Source of the DNA: a virus
Virus record (IMG/VR): IMGVR_UViG_3300031539_000007
Coordinates: 1 to 64,000 of that record
Length of the DNA: 64,000 bases
Strand: one strand, 5' to 3'
The position numbers were made by a program, and so were the translations under genes. Under the pieces are notes generated by a model that saw only the letters and a list, made by a program, of their open reading frames with translations, made no database searches and had not been told where the DNA came from. Below, piece after piece: positions 11,271 to 30,297 of this stretch; position 1 is the stretch's first letter; each line of letters begins with the position of its first letter.

Positions 11271-11310
11271 AAAAGACGCCCCGGATTCAACGCGGGGCGT
11301 CTTTGTTTTT
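11271..11310. terminator. Intrinsic terminator (probably bidirectional)
   Basis: AAAGACGCCCCG-loop-CGGGGCGTCTTT hairpin flanked by A and T runs. Confidence 0.8.
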
Positions 11311-11541: not shown

Positions 11542-12360
11542 TCACCTCTCCTCGCATGGCTCAAACCCTAACATGTCGATTGCCTTCTGCGGACTGATAA
11601 GCGAGTCTGCGTCTGACACAACCCTCAGTGGAACGCCATGATATTCTTGCGCACGGAACTCGTAGACGTTGACGCCATTAGGAACATACTTATCTATAAT
11701 ATTGAACGGCTCGTACCAGAACTCGCGCTCTGACTCAACGGCCAACCTGATGGCTTGTGCGCAATACTCAGGGTTGCAGTTCGCCCAGAAGCAGCCTCGG
11801 CGATAGTCTGAGTGCGGCACGCTTCTCCAGTCGAAGTCGCCTGGGTATTGTTGCCGCTTGTAGTTCGCCGGGGCAAGACGTAGCGCAACGGTTTGCATCA
11901 TTTTGTTTGTCCCGTAGTATGCGAGTATCTGTTCTGCCATTACCTTAGAGAACGGGTAATGCTTGATGCCACCACGGGAACGCCCCTGCGCCATATTGGG
12001 GTGCTTCTCGTCAATGGGTAGGTAGTCGGGGAACAACATCCCGTCAATGTCGCATCCGTAATATGCCGTGGAACTAGAATATACCATGCGCTTGACGCCC
12101 GCATTGTATGCGGCTTCTGCAACATTGAGTGTGCCCAGCACATTGACATCAAAGAAGTCTCTGAACGGCCTGGCGTTTGGGTGCGGTATGGCGGCGAGAT
12201 GCACTGCCACATCAACGCTACTCATCTTTGAGTAGAGCTTGTCTGTGTCAAGAATGTCGTCGCCGTTTGTGATGTCGTAGTTTATAATCTCGTGTTCTGC
12301 AAGCTCTGCAACTGCCAGCCTGCCAATTTTCCCGCTACCGCCAGTTACTAAGATTCGCAT
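11542..12360 (-). CDS. NAD-dependent nucleotide-sugar epimerase/dehydratase (extended SDR)
   Basis: ILVTGGSGKIG, VHLAA, NVLGTLNV, YSSS and YPFSK (YxxxK) motifs. Confidence 0.92.
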   Translation of the reverse strand: MRILVTGGSGKIGRLAVAELAEHEIINYDITNGDDILDTDKLYSKMSSVDVAVHLAAIPHPNARPFRDFFDVNVLGTLNVAEAAYNAGVKRMVYSSSTAYYGCDIDGMLFPDYLPIDEKHPNMAQGRSRGGIKHYPFSKVMAEQILAYYGTNKMMQTVALRLAPANYKRQQYPGDFDWRSVPHSDYRRGCFWANCNPEYCAQAIRLAVESEREFWYEPFNIIDKYVPNGVNVYEFRAQEYHGVPLRVVSDADSLISPQKAIDMLGFEPCEER

Positions 12361-13382
12361 TGTTTCATAACCTTTTTCGCTCGCTCAATATACGAATGCG
12401 GTTTAACCATCTCCCGCAGCGTATCGCAGTAATCGGCGCGCCGTTCTGGTTTGTCAACCCAGTAGCGTAGCAACTCGGTTAGCTCTTCTGGCGATGTGAA
12501 TGTCGGCACCAAGTCGCCAAACATTTCCTCGATCTCTTCGCGGTATTCAGAGATCAGGAACCCGCCACACGCTAACGCTTCATAGACTCGTGGCGATGCG
12601 CTTTCGGACTCAGGGATGCGCATCGCGCCCTCGTAGTCAATGGATGTACGGTTCAGATTCAAGCATATCTTCGCGCCGTTGTATAATAGCGCAGCTTGGG
12701 AGTTGGCGATACTGGTGTCTTTGTAATACTTCGCCAGAACATGATCGTGGTCGATGGGGTAATGTCCGTACATCACGAAGTCGAGGTCGCCCCAGTCAAC
12801 CTGCTCTAGCATCTCTACGCGCTCAGGGAACCCGCTGCCAATGAACACAACGTCGTGGCGCATATTCTGTGGCACGAATACAGGGAAGTGTGTCTCGGTA
12901 CTATAGGCTGTAGGGAGATATGGAAGTTCTAGCTTGCGCGCCACGGCCCGCTCGTTTGTATACACAAAATCGTTGTAATCAGTCAGGAATCCGAGCGTCC
13001 TGTCTTGGTATGGCGACTCCGTACCGATCACCACAGATTTCATGCCGGTTACGTGCAACCTTCTGATCCATTCCCATGCCTTCCTGTGGAGGGCCGTACC
13101 ATCAATTACAATGAGAATGTCAGGGTTTGATTTCATCACGTTGAGAATAACATCCATCGACGCCGATATGATTACATCTTCGTCCTCGTATGTTGCGTTA
13201 TAGTCCCCTTCGATTAGCCCCTTGAATCTGTAACTCTCGTTCCAGTAGCGGTATACTTGGTGATACGGGATTTCGTCAACCACATAGCCAAGTGTTCTGA
13301 GTGCGTAGACATATCCTTTCGCCACATCAAAATTCGAGACAGCAGTTGGGGGGAAGGCCATACAGATTTTCGGTTTTTGCAT
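12348..13382 (-). CDS. GT-B glycosyltransferase, CgeB / Glyco_trans_1_2-like
   Basis: DVVFIGS..PER, LYNGAKICLN and SPRVYEALACGGFLISE motifs. Confidence 0.88.
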   Translation of the reverse strand: MQKPKICMAFPPTAVSNFDVAKGYVYALRTLGYVVDEIPYHQVYRYWNESYRFKGLIEGDYNATYEDEDVIISASMDVILNVMKSNPDILIVIDGTALHRKAWEWIRRLHVTGMKSVVIGTESPYQDRTLGFLTDYNDFVYTNERAVARKLELPYLPTAYSTETHFPVFVPQNMRHDVVFIGSGFPERVEMLEQVDWGDLDFVMYGHYPIDHDHVLAKYYKDTSIANSQAALLYNGAKICLNLNRTSIDYEGAMRIPESESASPRVYEALACGGFLISEYREEIEEMFGDLVPTFTSPEELTELLRYWVDKPERRADYCDTLREMVKPHSYIERAKKVMKQCES

Positions 13383-13384
13383 TT

Positions 13385-14182
13385 CTATTCCTTGCTGGAT
13401 AACATGTACTGTGGCTCGTATGGTGTGCCATACTCAGGACAGAAGCCCCACTTATCCATAAACACCCAGCGGTTGTGACTGCGCTCTTTCAACCACTGCA
13501 TAAAATCTCCCTTGCTTTTTTGGCGTCTCTCGACAGCCCTGTCGCCGTGGTTTTGGTGAACTACACGAGTGTCTAGGTTGAAAACAAATTTACAGCCAGC
13601 GAGGTGGGCTTGGTATGCGAAATCACAATCCTCAAATCCCCAGCACGAATTATACCGCTCGTCGTGTCTCAGCGTTTTAGCCACACTCATCGGCAGGCTG
13701 AAGCTGTGCCCGCTCCCATATCGCCAGCGAGAATGTATTGGCAGATGGCGCGGATTCGAGATGCGCCCCCAGAACTTGTCTTCTTCATCTAGTTCGCCAC
13801 TTGTCAATGCCCCCTGCACACGGTTGAGCACGTACCACGGCCCGTCATCACGCGCGTGCCGCTGGATGTGCGACTCAATCCAGTTCGGTGGGTAGAGCAC
13901 GTCATCCTGTGTGCCGATGTAGACGCTGCCGGTAGCAGCATCCAGCCCCATATTGTTTGCCGAGGCTCTTGCGGGGTAGGCTTCGCGCAGGGGTTCTTGG
14001 ATGATAATCATCTCGAATGGGGGCGCTTGTGTTGCTAGGAAGGCACGGGTCTCATCGCCAGGATAGCCAACGACGATCAGAAATTCAAAGTCGTTGTTGG
14101 TTTGTTCTAGGAGCGTGGCGAAAGACTTCTTGAAATAAGGTAGCTTGGCGTCTACAGCGACATCAATGACGGATGGCCTCAT
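13385..14182 (-). CDS. GT-A glycosyltransferase (family 2-like)
   Basis: ASANNMGL, TQDD (DxD-like), DERYNSCWGFEDCDF and VVHQNH motifs. Confidence 0.85.
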   Translation of the reverse strand: MRPSVIDVAVDAKLPYFKKSFATLLEQTNNDFEFLIVVGYPGDETRAFLATQAPPFEMIIIQEPLREAYPARASANNMGLDAATGSVYIGTQDDVLYPPNWIESHIQRHARDDGPWYVLNRVQGALTSGELDEEDKFWGRISNPRHLPIHSRWRYGSGHSFSLPMSVAKTLRHDERYNSCWGFEDCDFAYQAHLAGCKFVFNLDTRVVHQNHGDRAVERRQKSKGDFMQWLKERSHNRWVFMDKWGFCPEYGTPYEPQYMLSSKE

Positions 14183-14412
14183 AATCCATCCGCTCCTGGT
14201 GGTTTCACAACACCTGCTATTTCTTCGACGTGTACAATCTGCCCTGTGTCACCAGTGTAATCTGACAGTAACCCATAAAGTCTTCCGCGATTGGCTATGT
14301 AATGTTCGGCACAATCGCCCGAATATGCTCTCATCACAGAAAACGCATACTTCGTTTGGTTGTTGCCGCTTAAAACAGTAACCAGTAGATTTATTCTGCT
14401 TGAGTCAAACAA
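14179..14412 (-). CDS. Hypothetical protein
   Basis: 77 aa, overlaps both neighbours in the operon. Confidence 0.55.
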   Translation of the reverse strand: MFDSSRINLLVTVLSGNNQTKYAFSVMRAYSGDCAEHYIANRGRLYGLLSDYTGDTGQIVHVEEIAGVVKPPGADGL

Positions 14413-15041
14413 TCGTAGTCCCCTTTCATCAAAGCGAGCGCAACTTTCAGCGCTTCCTTGATGTCTGTATTTCTAAGCTGGGTGCTCGCGTCAAGTACAT
14501 ACGGTACTGACGCATATTCTACCGTTCTCCCTGCTTTGATGGCAAGCCCTAGTAGTTCCATGTTTGTGGCGTGCCCATTGCTTTTAAGATACGGTAATAG
14601 CCCGATGACGCTCTTGAGATTGTAGGTGCGGTACCCATGGGTGGCGTCGCGAATCAACTCATGTGTGAGTAGAGATAGCGTCGCCGCTCCTGCAAGAGAG
14701 AGTATAGCACGAATCCCCAACTTGTCAAATTCCCTTGCTCGTACCAGGATGTCTGCGCTAAACTCAATGTCGAGATACTGCGGGTTGCATGTGCCAACGT
14801 CCATCACCGTCGCGTGGGTATAGCCAAGGCACGACGCAATATTCAGCCCTGCTTTTAGGGCATTGCCATACCCGCGTTTGTCTTTTGAGTAATCCACATG
14901 CTGTGCGAACCATTGCGCCATGCCAACGCTGCCGTCGTCGCCGTCTATCACGCAAACAATTTGCTCGCCGACAATAGAGCGCAACAGTTTTTCGAGATTG
15001 GCGCGCTCTTTGTAACTCAGAACAACTACGCACTTATTCAT
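14391..15041 (-). CDS. GT-A glycosyltransferase, polyprenol-phosphate mannose synthase (DPM1)-like
   Basis: SYKERANL, IDGDDGS, RGYGNALKAG, VMDVG and IRDATHGYR motifs. Confidence 0.8.
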   Translation of the reverse strand: MNKCVVVLSYKERANLEKLLRSIVGEQIVCVIDGDDGSVGMAQWFAQHVDYSKDKRGYGNALKAGLNIASCLGYTHATVMDVGTCNPQYLDIEFSADILVRAREFDKLGIRAILSLAGAATLSLLTHELIRDATHGYRTYNLKSVIGLLPYLKSNGHATNMELLGLAIKAGRTVEYASVPYVLDASTQLRNTDIKEALKVALALMKGDYDCLTQAE

Positions 15042-16031: not shown

Positions 16032-16035
16032 CTAT

Positions 16036-17034
16036 TTATTTCCCCCATTCTAGGCCAAGCGGCGTCAGTGTCGTTGGTAACAGTCGTGCGTCCACCAGAA
16101 ATCCACACCACCACGTTAATCCGCCACCCCACCACGACACAAACCATGCGGCTGAGTCGTAGCCGGGATTTGCGTCGCTTTCATACCACACTTTGAAAGG
16201 AATCATCACGTTGTCACGGATAGCCACCCACCCAGCCGCGTCAAACGGTTCAAATCGCTGGCACAGTGGGCCTGCTCCGACTTCGGTTATCCAGACGGGT
16301 CGATTGCCAAGTCCAAGTCCAACGTGATAGTTTTGATACCAGTGATCTAGTGCGGCTATTAGTTCAGGCATCCCCCATTCGCTACCGCATGGGGCAGACC
16401 AACATGGGTAAGCGTGGATATGGACGCCATTAACTGTATACAGCTTGCCGGTTGCAGACAGCCTGCTTACAAAGCGCGTCCACCAGCTACGGCTGCCAGC
16501 ACTGCTCAGCCCCGCGATACCGCCGACATAAACGAAGGCTTGTGGGTCGTGACTTTTAATGAGCGTGTAAACCTCAGCGTAACGGTCGGCGGTTTGCTCT
16601 GGTGTCAGCGTGAGATAATACCCACACGAGTCGGGGGTGCCACTGAAATCAGGTTCATTCAGCACCAGCCACGTGTGTCGATCACGTAGCGTGTCAGCCT
16701 TCGCTGCCGCAATGATTAGCGGGAGATTGACGGTGAGATAAGCGTCGTTTAAGCACCATATCATACGCACAAAACGTTCGCCAACCACCGGAGCGCCGAC
16801 TGACCATCCGTAGTACCAGTCAATATCTATTGTAAACGGAGCGCCGCCAACGCCATAGTCCATCGGGGTTTTGTAGCCACGATAAATCTGTGGCAGATAT
16901 ACCACCGACGGCGCGGGCGGCTCTGGTAGCGGTGATGTTTGCTTAAATATAATACATCCGGCTAATACCAGAACCAACACAAGAAAAAGCCCAGCACGTA
17001 AACTCACATAGCCAGCACCGCGAGCAAACGACAC
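16036..17034 (-). CDS. Clan GH-A glycoside hydrolase (GH128 / Glyco_hydro_cc-like), probable lipoprotein
   Basis: Hydrophobic N-terminus with LAGC lipobox; WYYGW, VLNEPD, HIHAY and PVWITE motifs. Confidence 0.8.
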   Translation of the reverse strand: MSFARGAGYVSLRAGLFLVLVLVLAGCIIFKQTSPLPEPPAPSVVYLPQIYRGYKTPMDYGVGGAPFTIDIDWYYGWSVGAPVVGERFVRMIWCLNDAYLTVNLPLIIAAAKADTLRDRHTWLVLNEPDFSGTPDSCGYYLTLTPEQTADRYAEVYTLIKSHDPQAFVYVGGIAGLSSAGSRSWWTRFVSRLSATGKLYTVNGVHIHAYPCWSAPCGSEWGMPELIAALDHWYQNYHVGLGLGNRPVWITEVGAGPLCQRFEPFDAAGWVAIRDNVMIPFKVWYESDANPGYDSAAWFVSWWGGGLTWWCGFLVDARLLPTTLTPLGLEWGK

Positions 17035-18036
17035 CTAATGGCTCCACATCCCAGTTGAGAATATCGGCTGTACTAGGCTCGTATCGTCTTTCCGTTCATC
17101 GCGCTCAGAGCTACTGATTTGCCCTGATGTTAGCGCGCCCGCGCCGGTGGCGTCTGCCCCATCCTGCGCGCCTCTTACGGCATCTTTCAACGCCCCGGTA
17201 GTGACATCTTTTTGTAATGCGTAGCACAATGCCCTGGCTGCACCAGCGCGCGTGTCGCTTTCTTGCGCCTTGAACCCCGCTGTGCGTTGTGTCATTTCAA
17301 CGTTCATAACGACACAATAATTAGCCCCCATCTTTACCATGCTTTGTGCCGCGCTTGCCGTGAGCGGCACCGTAATACTCGCCGCCGATAGCCATCCGTC
17401 TATCATCTGTGATACGGTGTCTTCAAAGTCCATTACATCTGTAGCTGTTGGGGTTGATGTGTGAGTGTATTTTCCATTATCAGTAAGATGCCTAGTCAGG
17501 GACTCTATCTCTCTGATATTAGAATAGATCGTAGCCCGTGTACCGCTGTAAGCCTGGAACGGGAAGTCTGTCGCTGTGGCTATCGCCGTCCATGCAGCAT
17601 TGAACGTTGAGCCAGCACCATTAAGGTAGTGCGGGTTGTCTTGGTCTGCACCTATCGCGACATAGTTAGTGGAGTCGGCTGTATACCCTCCGCCAGAGCG
17701 AATGACCAGGTGATATTGTACCGATGGCAATAACTGCGGGCGGCTATCAATGTCAAAGTCGAACGCATTCATCCCTGCCGAGATTGCGCTTGCGGCTATT
17801 GTCCCGGACGTACCATTGTCAATCGCCGTTCCGCTTGGCACACTGCTTGTATCGCCCTGAATCTGTACGTACAGATAGCCACCCGGTGTTCCGGTAAGAC
17901 TCGCGTACACATAGACACGTCCGACAGAACATGCCCGTTTGACTTTGAACCCCTGGGCAAGTTGGTTGTTCGCCCCGGAAGACGCCAGCGTGATGTCTTC
18001 CCCGTAATTTGTAGAAGCATATTCGGCGAGTAACAT
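17035..18036 (-). CDS. Head-tail adaptor with an extra N-terminal beta-sandwich domain
   Basis: C-terminal half (YSNIREIE...TPTATDV...IDGWL...ITVPLT) resembles Mu gp36 / HK97 gp6-type connectors; N-terminal LAQGFKV domain is additional. Confidence 0.6.
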   Translation of the reverse strand: MLLAEYASTNYGEDITLASSGANNQLAQGFKVKRACSVGRVYVYASLTGTPGGYLYVQIQGDTSSVPSGTAIDNGTSGTIAASAISAGMNAFDFDIDSRPQLLPSVQYHLVIRSGGGYTADSTNYVAIGADQDNPHYLNGAGSTFNAAWTAIATATDFPFQAYSGTRATIYSNIREIESLTRHLTDNGKYTHTSTPTATDVMDFEDTVSQMIDGWLSAASITVPLTASAAQSMVKMGANYCVVMNVEMTQRTAGFKAQESDTRAGAARALCYALQKDVTTGALKDAVRGAQDGADATGAGALTSGQISSSERDERKDDTSLVQPIFSTGMWSH

Positions 18037-18344
18037 TAGCGTTGCCTCACTTTGATTGTAATTGTGCGTTGGTCTGTACGGCTTGCAGTTGTGACAATTT
18101 CACACACAACATCATAGTCGTTAGGCGCATAGCCTCCAGATAGCCACGCAATAACACTGGTGTTTGTGTTTGCCGCCGCGTAACTGGCGACAGTAATCCC
18201 GGCTGGCGCTGTCACTGTGCAAGAACTAATCGTCTCTCCAGTCGCAAGCCAGTCGCTCGCCCCCGTCACGTTTGTAAGTGCCTTCCAGTCCCATGTGTAG
18301 TCCAGCACTGCGCCAGGGTCTTTGTAGAACCATTTATCTGCCAT
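18036..18344 (-). CDS. Virion fibre-adaptor-like small structural protein
   Basis: 102 aa with KDPGAVLDYTWDW...WLSGG...Y.V.C.I.T...RTDQRT signature of a widespread phage family. Confidence 0.7.
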   Translation of the reverse strand: MADKWFYKDPGAVLDYTWDWKALTNVTGASDWLATGETISSCTVTAPAGITVASYAAANTNTSVIAWLSGGYAPNDYDVVCEIVTTASRTDQRTITIKVRQR

Positions 18345-20004
18345 TCAATACCTCACTAAATCGACCTTCTGTGACGCCCCACCCAGGGACGCTACCCGAT
18401 TCTGCCCATCCGCGTGTGTAACGCTGGTTGCGGAATTCTTCGGGATGCCAGCGCGTCTTCGTCAAGTTCCCGCTGTGCCGGATGTCAACGTTTGGCTGCT
18501 CGGACATCCATACCTCTGACTTGTAATCATCTACTCGTTCGGCGCGATTGTGTGTCCCTGGCTCGAACCCCATTCTACGGGTGAACCCATTCTCTTCAAC
18601 AATCGCCACTCGTTTTCTGTAATGCTCTAATAGCAGGTCTCTGTAAGCGCATAGCCCTGAAGTAGAAGAGGCGTAGTGGAAAAGCGCGTGCCCTGTTTCG
18701 GAGTCAACCTTCCAAGAGTTCTGGTTGTAATAGAACAAGTCGCTCTTCTCTGGAACGAAGTCGAAGTGCGACGGGTGATAGAGCACATCGTGCTCCGCGA
18801 AGAAAAGAATGTCTGCGCCAGACGCCTCGACGCCCGCAAGAATCTGCTTGAACATCGTCAGATAGCCGCGCTCGGCATCAATAACAATATTCCTATCGCC
18901 GAAGTCTAGCGGTTCCAGCGAGACGCTTATGATTGGCAACCCACTCTTTAGCAACTGCTTTTGGCACGCCAGCATAATACCAGCGTCTAGCCGATTGTCA
19001 GTATAATATACTATACCCTTTTTTGCACTATTTGAAACCTTAACCACGCCGCCCTCTTTCGCTTTCAAGCCAGTCAAGTCTTCGTCAGTCCACCCGCGCA
19101 CCGGCCAGAATTTCTCTACAAGCCAAGACAGTGGGTGTATTTGCTTGTCCCACTTGTCATTGAAGAATAAGTCGTGAGCTGCCTTCTTAGCGTGTGCAAC
19201 TTGGTTCCCTGAGATTGGATATGGGAATCCGAAGTCCTTGCCCTGAGTCCTGAACATGTGCGCATACCAGGTCTTGTGGTTCACCATCACCGCCCCGCCG
19301 GACAGCCAAAACTTCGTTGCGACTTCTATGCCTTGCGATCCCCAGCTCCCAAAGCTCTCGTCGCATACGTTTAGCTCAAAGTATTTATCGCGCGTCAGCA
19401 TAAAGCACGAGCCTTGCAGACTCATCGTTGGGGTGATGTCGCCCTTGCCTTCTGGCCGCTTAGAGAACTCTTTGAAATACTGGAAATGCGGCTCTGGGTC
19501 AAAGCAATACGATACGCTTTGCGGGCTTGGTTTCCCAATCCACTTCATATCGCGCCGCGCATCACCACCGCACTTAGGGCATACCGGGCGCAGAATGTCT
19601 CCGCCTGGGGTTGGCCCCTGATAGGTGCGCCACTCGCAGCTATCGCAAGCCCAATCAAATGCGTGCAGGTTGCGCATTATCGGAACCATCACCCAATCAT
19701 CGCGCATCTCTGCCAGCATCTTAACATCGAAGCCCTCGTCGAACGCGCAGTGGGCGTCACACTTCATCAAGTATTTTGATTGGGCAATGCGCGCCGCTTC
19801 GTTGGTCGCCGCTCTCTGTCCAACACTTTCTGGATGATAGATGAGACTTACTCGCGAGCTATCGTTGACTGGTGGTTCTGCCCACTCACCGTCTAGCACA
19901 GCAATAATATCGGTGTCGCCCCTGATATTCACAAGGATGTCTTCGATTGTGCGAGCCAGGAACATTTCGTTGCGCGCAGGAATCAAGATGGTTAGGTCTG
20001 GCAT
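18334..20004 (-). CDS. Two-domain glycosyltransferase: ppGalNAc-T (GT27)-like N-terminal domain plus a second GT-A-like domain
   Basis: IPARNE, KCDAHC and WGSQGIEVATKFWLSGG...WYAHMFR; C-terminal KGIVYYTDN...FFAEHDVLYHPSHF. Confidence 0.85.
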   Translation of the reverse strand: MPDLTILIPARNEMFLARTIEDILVNIRGDTDIIAVLDGEWAEPPVNDSSRVSLIYHPESVGQRAATNEAARIAQSKYLMKCDAHCAFDEGFDVKMLAEMRDDWVMVPIMRNLHAFDWACDSCEWRTYQGPTPGGDILRPVCPKCGGDARRDMKWIGKPSPQSVSYCFDPEPHFQYFKEFSKRPEGKGDITPTMSLQGSCFMLTRDKYFELNVCDESFGSWGSQGIEVATKFWLSGGAVMVNHKTWYAHMFRTQGKDFGFPYPISGNQVAHAKKAAHDLFFNDKWDKQIHPLSWLVEKFWPVRGWTDEDLTGLKAKEGGVVKVSNSAKKGIVYYTDNRLDAGIMLACQKQLLKSGLPIISVSLEPLDFGDRNIVIDAERGYLTMFKQILAGVEASGADILFFAEHDVLYHPSHFDFVPEKSDLFYYNQNSWKVDSETGHALFHYASSTSGLCAYRDLLLEHYRKRVAIVEENGFTRRMGFEPGTHNRAERVDDYKSEVWMSEQPNVDIRHSGNLTKTRWHPEEFRNQRYTRGWAESGSVPGWGVTEGRFSEVLNGR

Positions 20005-20594
20005 TAGTCCTGTTCCTCTAACGGATCAACAAAGCTAGGCGCTCTAATCCAGAACCAGGTCGGGGTTCTCTCGTCGGTCAAGAACCATTTGTTAATACCG
20101 TGTTCACGAGTGTACGTATCAACAGCGGGGACAATTCCACCTCTCCGAAAACGGTAATAGTCATGCCCTGACACAACCCCGCCATACCTGACCTTCTTTG
20201 ACCACCAAATGATGTCGGTCATCACGAAATCGAAGGTGTGGTCTCCGTCTATGTACACAAAGTCCAGGGACTCATCAGGTATATCCATCACCGCCTCGAA
20301 GCTGGTCTCGCGAATGACGGTCGCGTTGTGCGGGGCTAGTCGTCTTTGAGTAGATTGATAACGTGATTCGCCTCTGAGTTTCCAGTACCACGGGTCTACA
20401 CATAATAGATGCAAGTCTGGAATAACCTTGAACATATACTCAGAGAAACGCCCACGGTCAACTCCGATCTCTGCGCCCTTAGTCAATCCGTACTCGCCAA
20501 AATATTGTACGAGTCGCTTACGTGTCAATGTGCGAATTCGCACTGGTGATATTTGTTGGGCCTGTTCGTACCACTTGTCCAGTAGTTCTTTCAC
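20004..20594 (-). CDS. Class I SAM-dependent methyltransferase (Methyltransf_24-like), probably a glycan O-methyltransferase
   Basis: GAEIGVDRG, CVDPW, DFVYIDGDH and GGVVSGHDY motifs. Confidence 0.9.
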   Translation of the reverse strand: MKELLDKWYEQAQQISPVRIRTLTRKRLVQYFGEYGLTKGAEIGVDRGRFSEYMFKVIPDLHLLCVDPWYWKLRGESRYQSTQRRLAPHNATVIRETSFEAVMDIPDESLDFVYIDGDHTFDFVMTDIIWWSKKVRYGGVVSGHDYYRFRRGGIVPAVDTYTREHGINKWFLTDERTPTWFWIRAPSFVDPLEEQD

Positions 20595-22207
20595 AGTAGT
20601 TCCTTGTATAGCGGGGCGACGTTATCAATGTGGTAGTCCTCCGCTCTGTCAATGAGTCTTTGCGCATCGAACCCGTCGCGGAGTCTCGCGATAACATCCA
20701 CAAGCTCTGCTATTGTTCTTGTGGGCCAATAGTAGCCATCAACTTCTTGGTAAGCTATTTCTGGATAGCCAACTGTTGGGATGCCGAATGACATTGCGTT
20801 GACGATCTTGAGCGGATTCTTTAGCGGCCTGTCCTGCATCCGCCATACAATCTGCACGTCAATGTCTTTATAGAACTCAACGATCTCATCTGGATTTCTA
20901 AAATGGCGCAACCATCTAAACTCGATACCCATATCCGCCAAAGCTTTCTCTAGCTCTTCGGCATCACACTGAATCGCCCCTTGCCCACCGACAACACCAG
21001 CAACCTTTATCTCGTCGCGTGTGCGGATAATGCGTTCAAAATTACAATGGTGCTGTGGTATAAAAACTACATCGTCTCTTCCAAGCTGCTGTTTCAGGTA
21101 TTCGTATCCTGTCTGGCTTGATGCAATCACGCCGCATTCTGGGTGCTCTTTAAGCCACGGTATTCTGCGTGGTTCATCTAGTACATCGAGATAGTGCTTC
21201 CCTGGCAGGGCGATGTCGTCAGGCTGTTGTTTAACCCAAATGTGTATATCGAAATCGTAGCCCCATCCAGTCTGTGGTTTTAGTCTCGCCATAAAGCGCT
21301 CTGCCATTTGCCTGCCGCGAATCTGTCCGCTTCCACCACGGCGACGATGAAACACAAAGCGCACCGCTTCTTCGCCCCACGTTGGCACAGGCCAGAATCT
21401 ATTGATTAACCAGCGGATGTCTCTGTCTTGTTTGCCCCACAGTTTGCCGTCCATCCAGCGGTTAGAGTATTCTGCGCCTTTGTCTAATACGGAGTGCGCG
21501 AGAGGCCACCCGCGCCCGTACTTGCGCCCCTTGTGAAGATGAGCATACCACGTGTTCTTGTTCCTGACAACGCGACCGCCAGACAGCCAGCACTTCAACC
21601 CTATTTCTTGGAACTCGAAGCAGAAGTGCCCGTAGTTCACATCGTCAAGCAACTCCAGTTCGTGGAAGTAGTCTCTGTGCATAAACCAGCACGAGCCTTG
21701 CGCGCTCATCAAATCGTCTATGAGTACATCTTTAAGTGTAGGGTCGTTCTGCTTCTCGCGCCATTCTCTACCGTGCAGGCTCGGCCCGCCGAAATCGTTC
21801 TTGTCTGACGGGGAACACAGGAACATATACTCGATGGGCTTCTTTTGTTTTGGTTGCCAGTTTTCTGCGTCCAGGCTGTAGCGCGTTGGGACAGCAACCC
21901 AGTTCGATTCCAGGTCTGCGATTAGCTTTACGTCGAATCCTTCATCGAACATACAATGTGCATCGCACTTCATTATATACTTTCCTCTGGAAATTGCAAC
22001 TCCGGCGTTAATTGCGCCGCGCATTCCTCGCGGTGTCGTGAAGTGTATATAATGTACGCGCTTGTCTTCAATAATCTCGTCGGGCCAGTACCCTTCAAGA
22101 ACCACAACGACCTCGATGTCACCCCCCGCCTTGGCGAGAATGTCTTTAACCGTGGGGTTAAGGAATTGCTCGTTTCTGGCTGGGATGACTACGCTTGTAA
22201 CTGTCAT
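20591..22207 (-). CDS. Two-domain glycosyltransferase: ppGalNAc-T (GT27)-like N-terminal domain plus a GT-B (GT4-like) domain
   Basis: IPARNE, KCDAHC and [14 protein letters not shown]...WYAHLHK; C-terminal [17 protein letters not shown]. Confidence 0.85.
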
Positions 22208-25200
22208 GACGGATCGCTCCTTTCTATTGGTGCTACTCTTGTCTCTATAGCTATTGTGTATACCCTAGATTCGGAATCTATTGGTGCTACTCTTGTCTCC
22301 GCCGGTACTGAGTAAGTCCGTTCCTCTGTTGGCTCCGTTGGCACGGACGGGCTTGGAGATGCCGAAGAAGACGCAGACCCACTGGCGCTCGCGGACGCCG
22401 ACTCTGACGGGCTTGGACTGCGGCTTGGCGAAGATGACGGGCTTCTGCTAGGACTTGACGATGCGCTTGATGACGCGCTGGCACTTGGGCTTAACGAAAG
22501 GCTCTCGGAGGCCGACTCACTGGCGCTCGCGCTTGACGATGGCGATGGCGATGCTGACGCAGAAGCCGACTCAGAGCCGGAGGCCGACGCCGACTCAGAC
22601 GCCGACTTTGACGCGCTGGCACTTGCGCTTTCTGAAAATCCGGCGCTTGGCGACGGGCTGGCTGATGCGCTGGCGCTCCCTGACGCACTGGCAGACTGGC
22701 TCTCTGATGCCGAAGGGGAAAGCGACGCAGACGGCGACAGTGACGCGCTGGCACTGGAGGATGGCGAAGTGCTCGCGGATTCACTCGCGCTGGCCGACGC
22801 GCTCCTGCTGGCGCTACTTGACGCGCTCTCCGACACCGACGCGGACGACGACGGGGATGGGCTGGCCGATGCGCTGGCGCTCTCAGAAGAACTGGCAGAA
22901 CTTGATTTTGAGGCCGATGCACTGGCAGATATAGACGCCGATGCCGACGCTGACTCAGAAATAGACTCGCTGGCGCTAGAGCTTGCTGAGGGGCTTTGGC
23001 TGGCGGATGTGCTTGCTGATTCCGAAGAAGACTCCGAAGCTGATGTGGATGCGCTCGCGCTGGCGCTTCCCGAAACCCCCGCGCTTGGCGAGGGTGATGC
23101 GGACGCGCTAACTGATTCACTGGCGCTGGCCGACTGACTCTCAGACGCCGATGGCGAAATAGACGCTGACGGAGAAATGCTTGCCGACGTGCTCGCCGAC
23201 TCTGACACACTCTCCGAGGCGCTGGCGCTGGTTGAGGCGCTGGCTGACGGGGATAGCGATGCGCTTCCGCTGGCGCTCGCGCTTATAGATTCAGAAGATG
23301 ATGGCGATTGGCTGGCAGACTCGCTCGCCGATGCCGAAGCACTGGCCGAAGCTGACTCACTCGCTGATTTCGATGCTGACTCTGATACAGACTCGCTGGC
23401 ACTAGCGCTAGAAGAAGGACTCTGGCTGGCTGATTCTGATACGGACTCTGACGCCGACGCTGAAGCGCTGGTCGAGGCGCTGACTGACGCCGACTCCGAA
23501 AAGCCGACGCTCGGAGATGGCGAAGCACTGGCTGAAACAGATTCGCTGGCCGATGCACTCGCGCTCTCTGAGGCTGACGGACTCTGGCTGGCCGATCCAC
23601 TAACGCTGGCGCTCGCTGACTCCGATGCACTAAAACTTGCCGACGTGCTTGCGGATGGCGATTGGCTTGCACTCTCGCTCGCGCTGGCGCTGACACTCTC
23701 TGATGCCGATGGCGATGGTGATGCAGAGGCGCTTGCCGATTCGCTCGCTGATTCCGACCCCGACACGCTGGCGCTCGTTGACGCTGACGGAGATTGTGAG
23801 GCGGATACGCTCTCGCTAGATGATGGGCTTTGACTAGCGCTCTCTGATGCCGACGCGCTAACAGATTCGGACACTGATTCGCTACCGCTGGCACTCGCCG
23901 ATGGCGACAAACTTGCCGAGGGGCTGGCTGATTCGCTGGCACTTTTCGACGCCGATGGCGATAACGACGCACTTGCCGAGGCAGACGCACTAATGCTCTC
24001 CGAAGCGGAGGGCGACGGGGACGCTGATGCGCTGGCGCTTTCTGATACGCTCGCGCTTGACGACGGACTTATGCTCGCGCTTTTTGAGGCTGACCCACTA
24101 GCACTCTCGCTGGCCGATGAAGACACGCTCTCACTGGCTGACGGCGACAGGCTTGCAGACTCGCTGGCACTGGCGCTGGCGCTCTGAGATGCGGATGCGC
24201 TGGCGCTTTTCGATGCGCTGGAGCTCGCCGATCCCGAAGCACTCTCTGAAACTGAGGGGCTGGCCGAGGCTGAGGTTGATGGGCTTAAACTTTGACTTGG
24301 CGATAAACTGGCTGATGGCGAGAGTGAGGGAGAACTGCTCGCCGACGCCGAAATTGATTCAGACGCCGAACTACTCGCTGACCCTGAGACGCTTCCACTG
24401 GCCGATGGCGAGAGCGAGGGCGAGCCGCTTGCCGATGGAGACGGGGAAGCCGAGCCGCTTACTGAGGCGGAGAGCGATTCGCTGGCACTGCTGCTGGCTG
24501 ATGGCGAGAGTGACGCCGACGCACTCCCAATAGTGCGGACTTCTACATCATTGACGTACTGCACTTCGCCAGCGGATGGCGATGGGGAAGCCGAACTACT
24601 CGCTGAAGCCGATACGGACTCGGAAGCCGAGCTGCTGGAACTGGGCGACAAACTCGCCGATGGCGAAAGTGAGGCTGACCCGCTGGCGCTGGGGCTTAAA
24701 CTGGCCGATGGCGAAAGTGAAGACGATTCGCTGGAACTGGGTGACAAACTGGCCGATGGCGAAAGTGAAGGAGACCCGCTGGAACTGGGAGAAAGTGAAG
24801 ACGATTCGCTGGCGCTGGGGCTTAAACTTAACGATTCTGAGGCTGACCCGCTGATGGATGGGGACAATGAGGCCGAACTGCTGGCTGAGGCTGAGGCTGA
24901 CTCCGATGTGGACGCGCTGGCGCTGGGTGATAAGCTTGCCGAACTACTTGCTGAAGCTGATGCCGACTCAGACGCACTGCCGCTGACGCCCTCCGCAAAC
25001 GTAATCGTATTGGCGAACTCTACCCACGGGTTATAAGCAGCAGTATCAGTATTGTTTTCGCCAAGATCGGTTCCAGAGTCGTCACCGATGCCAATCGCTC
25101 CCCGGTGGCGCTGTGAGGACGGGCTGGGATCGCCACCATACCCGATCTCAATTACAATCCTATCGTTCGCATTGGCTTCAACAGAGGATGTGGTAACTGA

Positions 25201-25602
25201 AAACTGTCTGTTGGTCAGCGTACCTACAGTAAGTGCTGCGTCATCCCTGGCTACGGCTAGAACCACCCCCGTAACGCTAGTCCCATCATTTGAAACAACC
25301 CGCACGCCAATTGTAGAGAACAGATTTGCGCCCGTGGCGTATTCGTACATGCGCATCTGGAACTTGAGCGTCTGCGCACTAAGCGTCTGTGCCGTGATTG
25401 GGTCAGATACATACTGTGCAAAACAGATGTCTTGATCTGCGGAACTTCCATCACTGCTGTTGGTGATTTGCGTCGTCGCAGACGCTATCTTGGCGATTAC
25501 TGCCTGGTAGCGTACTAGCGCATAGGAAGCTTCCCAGTCGCCAGATACGGCAGGACTAATCGCCGCCGCGCCAGAGGATGGAAGATAAAAACGAGTCGCC
25601 AT
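22204..25602 (-). CDS. Serine-rich repeat virion protein (1132 aa)
   Basis: Likely start MATRFYLP at 25602 (TAATG overlap with the upstream stop); about 200 aa globular N-domain, then roughly 880 aa of S-X alternation, then a short C-tail with ETRVAPI twice. Confidence 0.88.
22223..22299. repeat. 23-bp direct repeat (TCTATTGGTGCTACTCTTGTCTC x2, 54-bp period) encoding ETRVAPI
   Basis: Copies at 22223-22245 and 22277-22299. Confidence 0.9.
22350..24985 (-). repeat. Low-complexity (Ser-X)n coding repeat
   Basis: [11 protein letters not shown]-type alternation; GCCGATGGCGAAAGTGA recurs at 24656, 24704 and 24752 (48-bp period). Confidence 0.95.
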
Positions 25603-27224
25603 TACAATGTGCTGGTGATTCTTATCTGAGCATAGCCAGCCGATACAAAGCTGCCAATGTAGTTTCCCCACTCCGCGACAGAGCAAGCCCCTGGCGTTGC
25701 GCCGGTGCGATAATCCAGATCAATCGTATCGCCAGCAACATAGACGTTGTATGTTATCTCAATGTTTACCGCTCCGGTTTCCACGATCTCTGAAATCATG
25801 TACTCGCTGGTTTCTAGCGCAACTCGTTCTATGTCTACCTCGCCGGGGTTTTCAATTGTCCCGGTGCCAATCCAATTCCCGCTAAAATCTCTAACGTTGG
25901 CCTCGGCGACATCTGTGTCATGGCCCCAAACGACATCGGTTGAGACTGCCGCCGACGGAGAAGCGGAGGGACTGGCGCTGGCGCTGGACGAAGGGGAAAG
26001 CGAGCTTGAACTGCTGGCTGATTCCGAAGCTGATCTGCTGGCGCTTGGGGATAATGAGGCACTGCCAGAAGCGCTCGCGCTCGCGCTCCCCGATGCTGAT
26101 GGCGATAGGCTTGCCGACCCCGAAGCTGATTGGCTGGCACTTTCCGATGCCGACGCCGACGCGCTCTCCGAGGTTGATGGAGATTGCGAGGCGCTGACGC
26201 TCTCTGACGCAGATGGCGACTGTGACGCGCTCTCGGAAATACTCTCGGATGCAGACTCGCTAATTGACTCTGATGCGCTTGAAGACGCGGATGGCGATAG
26301 GCTCCCACTGGCGCTGGCAGACTCCGATGCTGACCCGCTCGCGCTTGGTGATAACGATGCTGATTCAGAAGCGGATTGGCTGGCGCTCGCGGAGGCTGAG
26401 GGCGACTGTGATGCACTTCCTGAAGCAGACTTGCTCGCAGAACTAGACGCGCTAGGGCTTGGTGACGCAGAAGATGAAGCTGATGGAGAAAGCGACACTG
26501 ACTCGCTTGCGCTTGGGCTTGAACTCCCCGACGCGCTGGATGAACCAGCCGCGCCAGCCAGCCAAAACCCCGTCGCTGGAACTGGATACCATACCTTCGG
26601 CGGATGATCTGCCCACGTCGGTGTGTTGTAGGCCGTCATCGTGTACCCACCGAACAAATCCTGGTCAGTGCGTAGTAAGGGCAAGTAAAAAACGAGAGCA
26701 TCAGGTCTAATTTGCCATGGGGGGATACCTGTGGCTAACATTGCTACTTGTGCGTCACTCAGCGCAATATCCCAGATTGCGGCTTCTGCGATTCTCCCGG
26801 ACATGTATCCTTCGGGGGCTGTCCCACCAACACGTCCGATTTGTAGCTGTGAGATACCTGTCGGGGCAGAATTAGACGAATCGGTGCCTTTATATCCACC
26901 GTTTTTGTAGACAGCACGGCTGTCTTCAGCCGCCCATACACCGCAGGCATGATGCCATGCATCTGTCCCAAACGTTTCGGGATAGGTTGTAGCGCGGGGG
27001 TAACCAGTCGCATACGTTACTGCTTCGATGCAGCCGTCTTCGTCGCCAGCCAGCGCCAGACGGAATGAATTGGCGCTTGTTGCAGGGTTGTCTAATGTCA
27101 TCAGTGCTTGATACGAGTCTGCGCTATCCGAGTGATACCAGCATGCCATAGTGAGCGGTACAGCTATGACTGGAGCAGAACCAGATAAATATTGGCTACT
27201 GGCATTATCAAACAGCCTTGCCAT
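25602..27224 (-). CDS. LamG / ConA-like lectin domain plus Ser-rich repeat protein (540 aa)
   Basis: TMACW, WHHACGV and [21 protein letters not shown] are LamG-like motifs; about 200 aa S-X tract; about 115 aa C-domain. Confidence 0.85.
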
Positions 27225-27227
27225 AGT

Positions 27228-27734
27228 TTACGTTTCCACTCCGCCGATGGCCCATAGCTCTGCGTCGCCGGCCATCGTGTCGTTTGCGTGCGCAGCATTG
27301 CGCATCACGCGCACGATTGCAAGTTCGCCGTCTGCCCAAGAGTCCATATCCGCGCCATCAGTGAATGCAATTGTTGGATAACTCAGTTCCCCGCTGGCAC
27401 TGGCCGCCGTGTCGTCAACTTCGTTAAATACGTAGGTATGTGCGGCGTCGATGTCCTCAGCGTCATCGTTCATTCGCCTGATAGCAATCCCCCATCTGGC
27501 AACGTCTGCGGTGGCGCTTGACGCAGACCACGGCAGTGTAAATGTCAACCCGCCGCTATCGTAGCCGCGCAACTGGCATAGGTAATCCATATACTCAATA
27601 GTCGCAGCATCAAAATCGTGGACGATGACATTCTCGGCGGGTGTGCTTCCGCCTGGCCGCGCGTCCAGCGTTGCCGCTAACGTGCCCGGCGGCATCACTC
27701 TTAAAACTTGGACAACAGGATCGCCACTTGCCAT
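27228..27734 (-). CDS. Putative virion structural protein
   Basis: 168 aa beta-rich protein in the head accessory cluster, translationally coupled. Confidence 0.6.
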   Translation of the reverse strand: MASGDPVVQVLRVMPPGTLAATLDARPGGSTPAENVIVHDFDAATIEYMDYLCQLRGYDSGGLTFTLPWSASSATADVARWGIAIRRMNDDAEDIDAAHTYVFNEVDDTAASASGELSYPTIAFTDGADMDSWADGELAIVRVMRNAAHANDTMAGDAELWAIGGVET

Positions 27735-27994
27735 TACAGCACCTCCCTGCGTTTTTCAGCAACTTCTTCGAGAATGAACCGTGCCAGTGTTTGATTGACA
27801 ATTAGCCATGCCCGCGCTTCGGTAGAGACATTTGCCAGTATCGCGCTCTCTGCTGTTTCCACACCTGCGTCAAACACATCTATTCCTGTCCGTAGTTGCG
27901 TTTTGGATAGATCAATTTGAAACCACGACGCGCTGAAAAGCCGTTGTAGCTCTGCGCTCAATTCGTCCTTTTGTTCAGTTGTTAGTTGTGCCAT
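27734..27994 (-). CDS. Hypothetical protein
   Basis: 86 aa, GGAG RBS, coupled to the next gene. Confidence 0.65.
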   Translation of the reverse strand: MAQLTTEQKDELSAELQRLFSASWFQIDLSKTQLRTGIDVFDAGVETAESAILANVSTEARAWLIVNQTLARFILEEVAEKRREVL

Positions 27995-28009
27995 TATTCA
28001 TCTCCATTT

Positions 28010-28366
28010 CTATGCCTTCATGGTAATAGTGAGCACTCTCGCAGCGGCTTGTGCTGCGTCAACCGCGCCACTCTCGCTCCATATCTTCACAAAACGTGCG
28101 CCTGCGACCCCGGCTGGAGCGGCGATAGACTCGCTCGCTATCGGGGTGCCGATTTCTACTAGCACTGCTTCTGAATCATACAGCGGCGTGAACGTTCCGG
28201 CCAGAGTTGTGCTTACATAAAACCCGATGTCAGCCGCAGTCCATACCGCCGGTAGCGTAATCACCATCTCCGAGTAAAACGAGAAATCAAACGCGCCTGA
28301 TAACGCAGCGTCTTTCGCAATCGTCGCGGTAATCACGTCCGAGCGTCTAAACATTCTGTTACTCAT
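28010..28366 (-). CDS. Putative virion accessory protein, tandem paralog A
   Basis: 118 aa; 82 of 118 residues identical to 28379-28735 by manual alignment. Confidence 0.75.
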   Translation of the reverse strand: MSNRMFRRSDVITATIAKDAALSGAFDFSFYSEMVITLPAVWTAADIGFYVSTTLAGTFTPLYDSEAVLVEIGTPIASESIAAPAGVAGARFVKIWSESGAVDAAQAAARVLTITMKA

Positions 28367-28378
28367 ATTCCACCTCGC

Positions 28379-28735
28379 CTATGCCTTTACAGTAACTATC
28401 AACGTCCTCTCCGCGAGTTGGTTTACACCAGACGCGGCGCTCTCACTCCACAGCTTCACGAAGCGCGACCCCGCTACCCCCGCTGGCGCTGCGAAGGACG
28501 CGCTGATTGCCGGGCCGTCTATCTCTAGCAGTGCAGCAGCGGCGTCGTACAATGGGGTGAATGTTCCGCCAGAGGTCGTGCTTACGTGGAAGCCAACGTC
28601 GGCGGCAGTCCACTCTGCGGGGAACGTTACTATCATCGTTGAGTAAAACGAGAAATCGAATGCGTCAGACAATGCTGCCCCATTCGCAATCGTTGCTGTA
28701 ATTACGTCCGACCGCCTGAACATTCTACCGCTCAT
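28379..28735 (-). CDS. Putative virion accessory protein, tandem paralog B
   Basis: 118 aa; paralog of 28010-28366. Confidence 0.75.
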   Translation of the reverse strand: MSGRMFRRSDVITATIANGAALSDAFDFSFYSTMIVTFPAEWTAADVGFHVSTTSGGTFTPLYDAAAALLEIDGPAISASFAAPAGVAGSRFVKLWSESAASGVNQLAERTLIVTVKA

Positions 28736-29231
28736 TTTTCACCTCGCGTGTTAATATGAAATCATCGAAACCAACTGGGTCAAATTTTGGCATTTCCCCT
28801 CTCCCGTTCATAACTTGCTTGATGAGCACGCGGATGCCTGCCAGTAGATATTCTATGTATTGCTGTAGCTTGCGTGCAGTATTGGCGCGTTCTACATCTC
28901 GGAGTTCAAGTTCTGTGATGCGGGTTTCTTGAATATCCAGTCGCCTTTTCTGTGCGATGAGGCTATATTCCTGCGCCTCAATTCGTTTCTCTTGGACGGT
29001 TATCAAGGCGCACTGTTTGTCGATCATGGCGTCCTGTTTCTCGATGCGCGACCCTTGCTTTTCAAGCCACCTATTGGCGCGCTCGTCGAGCATCGCGCCC
29101 ATGTCAGACTCGATCTTTCTTGCCTCGGCTTGCTCTTTGAGCAGCGAGGATTTGTCGCGCCGCCATTGCCGGTAAACACCAAGCAGGGAGACAACAATCG
29201 CTGCCCACGGAAGAATTTCAGCGAACTGCAT
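28725..29231 (-). CDS. Membrane-anchored coiled-coil protein (possible lysis accessory)
   Basis: N-terminal hydrophobic helix then a long heptad-rich region. Confidence 0.6.
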   Translation of the reverse strand: MQFAEILPWAAIVVSLLGVYRQWRRDKSSLLKEQAEARKIESDMGAMLDERANRWLEKQGSRIEKQDAMIDKQCALITVQEKRIEAQEYSLIAQKRRLDIQETRITELELRDVERANTARKLQQYIEYLLAGIRVLIKQVMNGRGEMPKFDPVGFDDFILTREVKNER

Positions 29232-29493
29232 TTTTCACCGCCGTTTTGTAGATCGCAATGCTCAATAGCACTAACAGATTAAGAACGCCCAGCCAAGCAT
29301 TAAAGTGGTTCAGTTCCGCATTACTGAGATTACCAAAGTAACAGTACCCATAGAAAACCAGCACCAAAATTGCGTATGCAATCGGCCCGTAGGTCAGATA
29401 TACCCAGCTACGGCTTGTCCGTGCTAGTATGTAGTAGGCCACGATGACCGCCACGGATAATATGATTCGTGCATAGCGCGTAATCTCTATCAT
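29218..29493 (-). CDS. Small 3-TM membrane protein
   Basis: 91 aa, three hydrophobic segments. Confidence 0.6.
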   Translation of the reverse strand: MIEITRYARIILSVAVIVAYYILARTSRSWVYLTYGPIAYAILVLVFYGYCYFGNLSNAELNHFNAWLGVLNLLVLLSIAIYKTAVKNAVR

Positions 29494-30194
29494 TGTTTAA
29501 CTTGCCACTCGCTTACTTTCATAAAGTCCTCAGTCGTTACCATTGCGGTTTTCAAGTGCCCGATGTGTAACGCCAAATCAATTGCTGGCCGATACCCGCA
29601 GTCTTGTGCCAGCTTGCAGAAGTACGTGTCCTCGCCTAGCTCTTCCCCGTGTCCACCAAACAAGTCGTCTTGCTTGGCAAACATTGTTTCCAGTACGTCC
29701 CTACGAATCAGAGTGCAGCCAAACCCAATCACGTCGAAGTCCACTACCGTATTGCCTAGTAGGTCGTAGCAGACAGGACTATTAACAACGGGGGCATTGT
29801 GCTCGACAAGCCAATCGCGCACGAATTGTGATTTGGAGTAGGTCTGCGTGCGCTCCACGTCATTCCACGCAAAGGCTACGGCTTCAGGGGCTTCGCGGCG
29901 CTTGAAGTACAACGCCCCGACGATGGGCAACTCATGTTTGAGTAGCCGCCATACGGTTTCTTGATGCAGCACGTTGTCAGAATCTACGAACAGTAAGTGG
30001 GTTGCGTCAGACTCCACAAAGTGTTTGGCAATCCCCTGGCGTCCCTGACGCACGTAGGTTGGCGTGTCGTAAGTCTCGGCTATCTTGATCCCGCGTGCCG
30101 CCAGCACGATCTGTGATTCCTTCACGGAGTCGGTGTGTTGCCAGAAGGCGAAACGCTCGCGGCAGGTTGCGTACATCACTTTCAATTGTCCCAT
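29490..30194 (-). CDS. GT-A glycosyltransferase (family 2-like)
   Basis: Start at ATG 30194 after AAGGAG; ATHLLFVDSD, IGFGCTLIRRDVLE, GEDTYFC and IGH motifs. Confidence 0.85.
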   Translation of the reverse strand: MGQLKVMYATCRERFAFWQHTDSVKESQIVLAARGIKIAETYDTPTYVRQGRQGIAKHFVESDATHLLFVDSDNVLHQETVWRLLKHELPIVGALYFKRREAPEAVAFAWNDVERTQTYSKSQFVRDWLVEHNAPVVNSPVCYDLLGNTVVDFDVIGFGCTLIRRDVLETMFAKQDDLFGGHGEELGEDTYFCKLAQDCGYRPAIDLALHIGHLKTAMVTTEDFMKVSEWQVKQ

Positions 30195-30228
30195 TAGCAG
30201 CTCCTTTTCTAAAGGGTTGATTGTGTTT

Positions 30229-30262
30229 ATTATAGCACAAGCCAATAGTCGTGCTACCTTAA
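30229..30262 (-). promoter_or_regulatory. Putative promoter for the accessory/glycosylation operon
   Basis: TTAAGGT-N21-TATAAT with an extended -10 (TGCTATAAT). Confidence 0.7.
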
Positions 30263-30297
30263 CAAACAGGCGACTCCTGATGTCAGAAGTCGCCTGT
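30261..30297 (-). terminator. Intrinsic terminator ending the capsid operon
   Basis: ACAGGCGACT...AGTCGCCTGT stem followed by TTGTT on the minus strand. Confidence 0.75.

Follow-up and report, generated by a model that had tools for sequence, protein, structure and literature searches.

The window analysed here comprises the first 64 kb of the linear, metagenome-assembled virus record IMGVR_UViG_3300031539_000007 (113,043 bp, 51.7% GC, 82% complete by CheckV), and the system under study is a block of ~19 kb within it, in which genes for glycosyltransferases (GTs) and a methyltransferase stand beside genes for two proteins with long serine-X (Ser-X) dipeptide repeats. On the minus strand, to which every feature given below belongs, scans against PHROG and Pfam delineated a siphovirus-like late region with genes for the portal (35136-37169), the major head protein (31609-32580), the major tail protein (10688-11086) and the tape measure protein (5171-9835). 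The block forms a leftward unit situated between the capsid gene and the tail gene; it is packed tightly, lies on the same strand as the structural genes on either side and is of even GC content, repeats excepted. It contains six GT genes (seven or eight GT domains), a methyltransferase, an epimerase and the two Ser-X proteins, and no tRNA genes were found in the window. A preliminary description of this DNA had proposed a unit in which head and neck genes are mixed with six GT genes (about eight domains), a methyltransferase, an epimerase and a glycoside hydrolase, and all of these were recovered, the enzymes by Pfam or by Atlas structure neighbours.

The same description had treated the block as a single leftward unit, with a promoter at about 30250 and a terminator at about 11290. 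At the upstream boundary (30228..30297), a hairpin with a T-run (~30262-30297) is followed by an extended -10 element, TGCTATAAT (30228-30236), and then by a ribosome-binding site, AAAAGGAG; at the downstream boundary (~11270-11300), a GC-rich hairpin is followed by TTTT. Both boundaries were seen by eye, and neither of the two sites is listed by a consensus promoter/terminator scan. Inside the unit, the two Ser-X genes are joined by a TAATG overlap at 25602 that was read in the sequence, and the gene for the 1132-aa Ser-X protein runs into that of a 538-aa GT via an ATGA overlap (22204-22207) with a ribosome-binding site, GAAAGGAG, ahead of it. Further overlaps were found along the run of GT, methyltransferase, GT and gp77-like genes (20591-20594, 20004 and 18334-18344, in open reading frame (ORF) coordinates). 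The Ser-X genes are translationally coupled to the GT-methyltransferase-GT trio, as had been proposed for the largest Ser-rich gene.

Ser-X protein 1 (22204-25602; 1132 aa) consists of a jelly-roll anchor of ~205 aa, a Ser-X region of 881 aa and a tail of 45 aa, its start being the ATG at 25602 rather than the TTG at 25686. Its repeat (aa 207-1087) has 860 residues in strict (S-x)n runs, the sole interruptions being a 16-aa island and three short punctuations of the type G(F/V); the X positions are filled chiefly by A, P, E, L, V or G, and the region is highly acidic. Ser-X protein 2 (25602-27224; 540 aa) is composed of a Laminin_G_3/ConA-like N-terminal domain (PF13385, E 2.4e-16), a 198-aa repeat and a 115-aa C-terminal domain, and matches phrog_8510, a ‘virion structural protein' (E 2e-7). 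Combined, the two proteins harbour ~1,080 residues of strict repeat, in agreement with the roughly 1000 Ser-X residues estimated earlier (881 and 198 repeat residues were counted), and no Ser-rich ORFs other than their genes occur in the genome. The repeats draw on all six Ser codons, and Tandem Repeats Finder detected only short weak arrays in the Ser-X genes; the repeat is therefore kept at the protein level and is not a product of recent slippage. Neither protein was found to carry a signal peptide, an LPXTG motif or a transmembrane segment, their N-termini (MATRFYLP... and MARLFDNA...) being without a hydrophobic stretch, and searches for SecA_DEAD and SecY gave no match in the 113-kb record, whereas the search controls did match. 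The earlier claim that signal peptide, LPXTG and SecA2/SecY2 are absent is consistent with these results.

The trio begins with a bifunctional GT of 538 aa (20591-22207), in which a GT-A domain (aa 1-285) resembling polypeptide N-acetylgalactosaminyltransferases (ppGalNAc-Ts) is fused to a GT-B domain (Pfam Glyco_trans_1_4). It continues with an S-adenosylmethionine-dependent methyltransferase (20004-20594; Methyltransf_24, E 3.8e-17) and ends with a bifunctional GT of 556 aa (18334-20004), composed of a ppGalNAc-T-like GT-A domain with a Cys-rich insert and of a second GT-A domain. The trio is thus made up of two GT27-like domains, one additional GT-A, one GT-B and one methyltransferase. The best virus match of the methyltransferase in GenBank is the O-methyltransferase of Lokiarchaeota virus WyrdV1 (MZ666939.1; 35% identity, E 2e-19), and its matches among GenBank virus records are confined to cyanophages, a few uncultured viruses and this one Lokiarchaeota virus.

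For the 556-aa GT, the best matches in the PDB were ppGalNAc-T1, T2, T7 and T9 (E 9.5e-6 with the single sequence), and the ppGalNAc-T match improved to E 1.9e-7 with a profile from 18 homologues. D83, H85 and H249 are invariant across these homologues, and the motif WGSQGIEV...WLSGG is invariant or near-invariant; in the profile alignment to GalNAc-T1, VDAHC falls on the DxH motif and H249 on GH(V)FR, the third metal ligand. The 538-aa paralogue also keeps DxH and the downstream His, and its N-terminal half shares 33% identity with that of the 556-aa GT, with the DAHC, QGSC, WLSGG and YAH motifs in common. In the Gal/GalNAc-T motif region, WGSQGIEVA.K.WLSGG is to be compared with WGGENLEISFRIWQCGG; the region is similar, and differs from the canonical WGGENxE... 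Using an AlphaFold2 (AF2) model of the 556-aa GT (predicted local distance difference test (pLDDT) 76), Foldseek retrieved K4CP, a two-GT-A chondroitin polymerase, over the full length, and ppGalNAc-T1/2/4/7/9/12 over the N-terminal ~340 residues (E 1e-11 to 1e-9), the low template-modelling (TM) scores against the ppGalNAc-Ts (~0.3) reflecting a two-domain query and a medium-confidence model. By profile and by model, therefore, both GTs of the trio carry an N-terminal domain that is closest, among solved structures, to eukaryotic GT27, in support of the preliminary description. The Cys-rich insert of the 556-aa GT (aa 117-160), absent in the 538-aa paralogue, looks like a zinc ribbon; C120, C142 and C145 are invariant in the 18 homologues.

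No flippase, polymerase or lipid-carrier/initiating phosphotransferase family was detected by the Pfam scan of the block proteins, and no transmembrane segment or signal was found in the GTs or the methyltransferase. These results point to cytoplasmic protein glycosylation rather than to a polysaccharide pathway, and a lipid-linked polysaccharide pathway was rejected on these grounds. The family of the 556-aa GT has >5,700 metagenomic homologues, nearly all of them unnamed. Neither of the two GT27-like proteins had a tblastn match in 50,697 GenBank phage records (mycobacteriophages included), and megablast of the block against the same records was likewise without a match.

The association of Ser-X proteins with these enzymes was assessed from both sides. 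On the enzyme side, an IMG/VR scan with the 538-aa GT yielded 25 loci, all with GT27-like gene(s). Among them, 22 harbour a Ser-X ORF 100 aa or longer, which in every case shares the strand of the GT and lies at a median distance of 464 nt from a GT27-like gene. No such ORF was found in nine GT-free control loci (152 kb; Fisher p = 4e-6), which comprised Streptomyces phage Muntaha and loci related through the anchor domain or the capsid protein. The methyltransferase is kept alongside the GT in 22 of the 25 viral loci and in 23 of 30 loci from cellular genomes (see below). On the acceptor side, a 123-aa N-terminal domain common to 11 Ser-X proteins gave 11 loci, of which 10 have a Ser-X tail and eight a GT27-like gene within 1.5 kb downstream; in the remaining three, the sequence past the Ser-X ORF extends for 2.4 kb or less. 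The pairing of Ser-rich ORFs with GTs that the preliminary description anticipated among viral contigs is therefore found in either direction. Furthermore, Ser-X tracts are joined to >20 unrelated N-terminal domain clusters, so that the Ser-X repeat itself is the common feature travelling with the enzymes. In total, the cassette was found on at least 33 independent IMG/VR contigs, some of which also carry TerL, portal and the major capsid protein (MCP), or the tape measure protein.

Several of the cassettes show traces of inserted elements. The gene for the 556-aa GT is interrupted by an insert of ~0.5 kb in two contigs (L023 16885-19146 and L027 12317-14446), one database homologue of this GT (P0093) has GIY-YIG/NUMOD homing-endonuclease domains, and in L074 an HNH endonuclease gene separates the Ser-X gene from the GT. 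Homing elements or introns seem to target the cassette.

The N-terminal ~205 residues of Ser-X protein 1 fall into a family of 2,453 cluster representatives and were modelled by AF2 as a jelly-roll (pLDDT 94.8). In BFVD, the fold matches the N-termini of phage proteins with collagen repeats, S74, pectin-lyase or IPT/TIG domains, which identifies the domain as a fibre or spike anchor; the fold search was the informative one, as the anchor-domain profile had no match in the PDB or Pfam. Ser-X was absent from all of the 150 best anchor-domain homologues, and a related-locus search with the anchor-family protein P0132 found nothing. In Streptomyces phage Muntaha the anchor domain makes up a protein by itself, its gene being flanked by those for the capsid and the head-to-tail adaptor. 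In the window, a gene for a gp77-like fibre-tail adaptor (18036-18344; PF23148, E 3.2e-20) is located three genes downstream of the Ser-X genes, with the GT trio in between. The same gp77-type pairing of fibre and adaptor is found in contig L002, where the anchor domain heads a 1188-aa protein behind tail and lysin genes and the gp77-like gene is directly next, and in contig L018, where the gp77-like gene comes directly after a Ser-X gene.

In two contigs of a second phage lineage (L074 and L078), the gene order is TerL, portal, scaffold-like, major head protein, Ser-X protein and GT cassette, the Ser-X gene thus occupying the usual place of a head decoration protein. The nearest relative of the window phage, a 119-kb contig (L068) with a capsid protein of 54% identity, retains the order of the flanking genes, but the two Ser-X genes are missing from it, as are the trio, the hydrolase, the epimerase, the gp77-like gene and two GT2 genes. 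This marks the module as accessory. Overall, domain architecture and gene position support the Ser-X proteins being virion fibres or decoration proteins. The preliminary description had them coat the virion, which goes too far: for the window phage, the anchor domain together with the gp77-like adaptor suggests that the fibres are fixed close to the neck or tail, and a Ser-X gene right after the capsid gene was seen only in the second lineage.

The module is not confined to viruses. Searching species-representative genomes with the GT gave 30 loci, of which 19 bear Patescibacteria/candidate phyla radiation (CPR) names, while most of the others are metagenome-assembled genomes (MAGs) of 0.6-1.1 Mb labelled Gammaproteobacteria. 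In a Parcubacteria MAG, the module shares a 455-kb contig with rpoB (G001:C2:401900-420500; L064, L065); its 907-aa Ser-X protein is also without a signal peptide, and its neighbours encode LepA, MurJ, ribonucleotide reductase (RNR), FtsH and proteins of the cohesin, dockerin and Ig-like types, phage genes being absent among them. On a WWE3 contig, a 2,323-aa Ser-X protein adjoins TatC and CorA. Occurrence is sporadic, with the GT present in 6 of the 401 Patescibacteria genomes sampled; the capsid protein of the window phage had one weak match in these 401 genomes and none in five module-carrying MAGs. Being found in phages and in CPR cells, the module is shared and probably mobile. That the locus is not a captured locus for a bacterial serine-rich repeat protein (SRRP), as the preliminary description maintained, stands in that no Firmicute SRRP/accessory Sec locus is present; the view of it as phage-only does not stand, as CPR chromosomes hold homologous modules. 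In two of the loci (L049 and L050), a Y1_Tnp-like plus SH3 protein is encoded immediately upstream of the module.

We consider it fairly probable that the block contains an accessory module, set in a siphovirus-like head-neck cluster, which encodes two fibres of anchor plus Ser-X stalk together with the cytoplasmic enzymes that would O-glycosylate their serines. In the proposed mechanism, the two ppGalNAc-T-like GT-A domains would place the first sugar on Ser, the fused second domains (GT-A and GT-B) plus other GTs would lengthen the glycan, the methyltransferase would cap it by O-methylation, and the epimerase would provide the UDP-sugar. The products would be acidic, mucin-like bottle-brush fibres, which the jelly-roll anchor would mount on the particle with the help of the gp77-like adaptor, probably in the neck or tail region; by our own estimate from typical mucin contour lengths, the 881 residues would extend ~200-300 nm. 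More tentatively, and with somewhat less than even confidence, the module may belong to a widespread prokaryotic and viral mucin-type system, in which ppGalNAc-T relatives and methyltransferases serve Ser-X proteins, move between phages and CPR bacteria and build fibres of hundreds of nm.

The main rival reading is that the GTs, the epimerase and the ConA-like/Ser-X proteins constitute auxiliary metabolic genes (AMGs) for remodelling of the host surface, expressed during infection to alter or build glycoproteins there, with products that are not part of the virion. It draws on the homologous Patescibacteria chromosomal modules, one beside LepA/MurJ/RNR, FtsH and the cohesin, dockerin and Ig-like surface proteins and a second by TatC/CorA, and on the interpretation of ConA-like and nucleotide-sugar genes of Patescibacteria phages as adhesion AMGs (PMC12911398). 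However, the genes lie within a late head-to-tail operon and are translationally coupled, the Ser-X proteins have neither signal peptide nor transmembrane segment, their N-terminal domains are phage fibre anchors with a fibre-tail adaptor gene following the module, and in another lineage the acceptor gene is directly behind the capsid gene; remodelling of the host surface is thus unlikely to be the role of the module. A similarly low probability is assigned to the Ser-X tracts being unmodified, flexible or silk-like spacers, with the GTs targeting other virion proteins (of the capsid or tail, as happens in mycobacteriophages), host polysaccharide or DNA. Many phage GTs do modify DNA or O-antigen (PMC12619734), and the operon of the nearest relative keeps the GT1 and two GT-A-like genes without a Ser-X gene, so that some GTs of the operon have another target. 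Unmodified spacers would nevertheless leave unexplained both the translational coupling and the two-way pairing of Ser-X with the GT27-like/methyltransferase cassette over unrelated anchors, and the nearest solved relatives of the GT27-like domain are protein O-GalNAc-transferases.

The block could also be a captured CPR genomic island or a chimeric assembly without function in the phage, given that the record is an incomplete linear metagenome contig and that the module is sporadic in CPR. This is very improbable in view of the tight packing on one strand with structural genes on both sides, the even GC content outside the repeats, and the recurrence of the cassette on the independent IMG/VR contigs, including those with TerL, portal and MCP, or the tape measure protein.

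Several points weigh against the interpretation as glycosylated fibres. The genomic evidence, made up of gene content, motifs, folds, couplings, co-occurrence and accessory status, is strong; the glycosylation of the Ser-X repeats, their place in the virion, the kind of sugar, the site of attachment and a role as shield or in adhesion are inferred. The model of the 556-aa GT is of medium confidence only, and the likeness to GT27 is remote (profile E ~1e-7, 15-18% identity); with Pfam assigning the domain to GT2, homology by itself does not reveal the type of acceptor. The co-occurrence test had a small set of controls, and there are near-duplicates among the loci. Moreover, the phage-free modules in CPR genomes mean that the product may serve a cellular role that the phage exploits in infection.

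Among known systems, the repeat chemistry is very similar to that of the SRRP adhesins (GspB, Fap1, PsrP and SraP), which have SASESAS-type repeats, are glycosylated in the cytoplasm by adjacently encoded GTs (GtfA/GtfB) and are accompanied by an accessory Sec system. As in those loci, a Ser-X dipeptide region is encoded with GTs alongside, and the GT profile weakly matches GalT1 (5hea; E 3.9e-5), which belongs to the Fap1 pathway. The window differs in being without signal peptide, LPXTG, SecA2/SecY2 and Asp proteins, in its context of a phage morphogenesis operon, and in the candidate initiating enzyme, GT-A/GT27-like here yet a GT-B GtfA/GtfB pair there. In the staphylococcal serine-aspartate repeat (SDR) proteins, the stalk is protected by its glycan. 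X is Asp in these proteins, whereas in the window phage A, P, E, L, V, G and others take this position; they are also anchored in the cell wall and served by other GT families. According to PMC3794999, their Ser-Asp stalk is glycosylated on serine by SdgA/SdgB, which are encoded nearby.

Mycobacteriophages (Che8, Corndog/Cluster O and Myrna) offer a parallel in gene context, with cytoplasmic enzymes encoded by GT and O-methyltransferase genes in the structural operon and with glycosylated virions (PMC4351075); PMC12619734 likewise refers to virion glycosylation in mycobacteriophages, citing Freeman 2023. The glycans there are carried by C-terminal extensions of capsid and tail-tube subunits, whereas here dedicated Ser-X fibre proteins would carry them: the MCP of the window phage (323 aa) and its homologues align from one end to the other, and the 132-aa tail protein is without a Ser-rich tail. 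The GT27-like enzymes, moreover, have no tblastn homologue in mycobacteriophages among the GenBank phage records searched. With eukaryotic GT27 mucin initiation, the module shares the GT-A fold, DxH and the downstream His, as well as a long Ser-rich repeat as putative acceptor and a nearby epimerase that possibly supplies the UDP-sugar; the stretch at the Gal/GalNAc-T motif is similar to, but not identical with, the canonical one. The phage enzymes are, however, without a ricin-type lectin domain or membrane anchor and are instead fused to a second GT-A (K4CP-like) or a GT-B, sequence identity is only ~15-18%, and the putative acceptor is a strict Ser-X dipeptide repeat rather than a Pro/Thr/Ser-rich mucin domain. 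Collagen-like (G-X-Y) phage fibres share with Ser-X protein 1 the fold of the N-terminal anchor, and their stalk is also long and repetitive, but here the stalk is Ser-X, without a collagen triple helix, and comes with a dedicated glycosylation cassette.

In the literature searched, no description was found, for either phages or CPR bacteria, of GT27-like enzymes that accompany Ser-X repeat proteins, and the pairing looks like an undescribed protein O-glycosylation module. To our knowledge, virion glycosylation is established by experiment only in a few actinobacteriophages and in giant or algal viruses. If the interpretation is correct, thousands of uncultured phages would make mucin-like glycoprotein fibres, given the >5,700 metagenomic members of the GT family, and Patescibacteria phage genes currently labelled as host-surface AMGs would change in meaning. 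The enzymes would represent a non-eukaryotic branch of GT27-like enzymes, namely soluble cytoplasmic relatives of mucin-initiating GalNAc-transferases with a defined repeat acceptor, of use in enzymology and glyco-engineering; in addition, a mobile module linking phages with CPR bacteria may aid host assignment.

The remaining genes of the block are a mixture of structural, putative lysis and sugar-related functions. The first gene of the unit (29490-30194) encodes a GT-A-like glycosyltransferase of 234 aa from the likely ATG; it belongs to phrog_1574, is a weak match to a glycosyltransferase PHROG, and has viral GT2/Anp1 clusters as Atlas structure neighbours (TM 0.74-0.81). Two copies of this gene are carried by the relative L068. 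Right behind it, inside the structural operon, a small 91-aa protein with three transmembrane-like segments by hydropathy scan, holin-like (29218-29493), and a 168-aa protein with an N-terminal transmembrane segment (28725-29231) may constitute a holin-like or lysis pair; neither is counted among the components of the glycosylation system. Next come tandem paralogues of 118 aa each (28010-28735), which are core structural-module genes; their N-termini are nearly identical (MS.RMFRRSDVITATIA), and a homologue is located at the same position in L068.

Downstream of the gp77-like gene, a probable head-to-tail adaptor with an extra N-terminal beta-sandwich domain (17035-18036) is conserved in L068 and syntenic with the head-to-tail adaptor gene of phage Muntaha; its C-terminal part resembles Mu Gp36 in Atlas models (TM 0.69 by target), which is taken as a lead only. 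It is followed by a Glyco_hydro_cc glycoside hydrolase (16036-17034; Pfam E 1.3e-9), which the preliminary description had counted as part of the system. This protein bears an N-terminal lipoprotein-type signal (…LVLAGC) and had no tblastn match in any related locus screened. Its candidacy as a glycan-trimming member was dropped on account of the lipobox and of the absence of co-conservation with the module, which make it probably an exported envelope-degrading or lysis enzyme unrelated to glycosylation. The unit then continues with a weak GT2 (14391-15041; Pfam 22.3 bits, just below the cut-off), a GT2 (13385-14182; Pfam) and a GT1 (12348-13382; Pfam), the last of which is also present in L068, which is without the Ser-X module. 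At its end, an NAD-dependent nucleotide-sugar epimerase/dehydratase is encoded (11542-12360; Pfam E 3.3e-18), homologues of which occur in many of the related cassettes.

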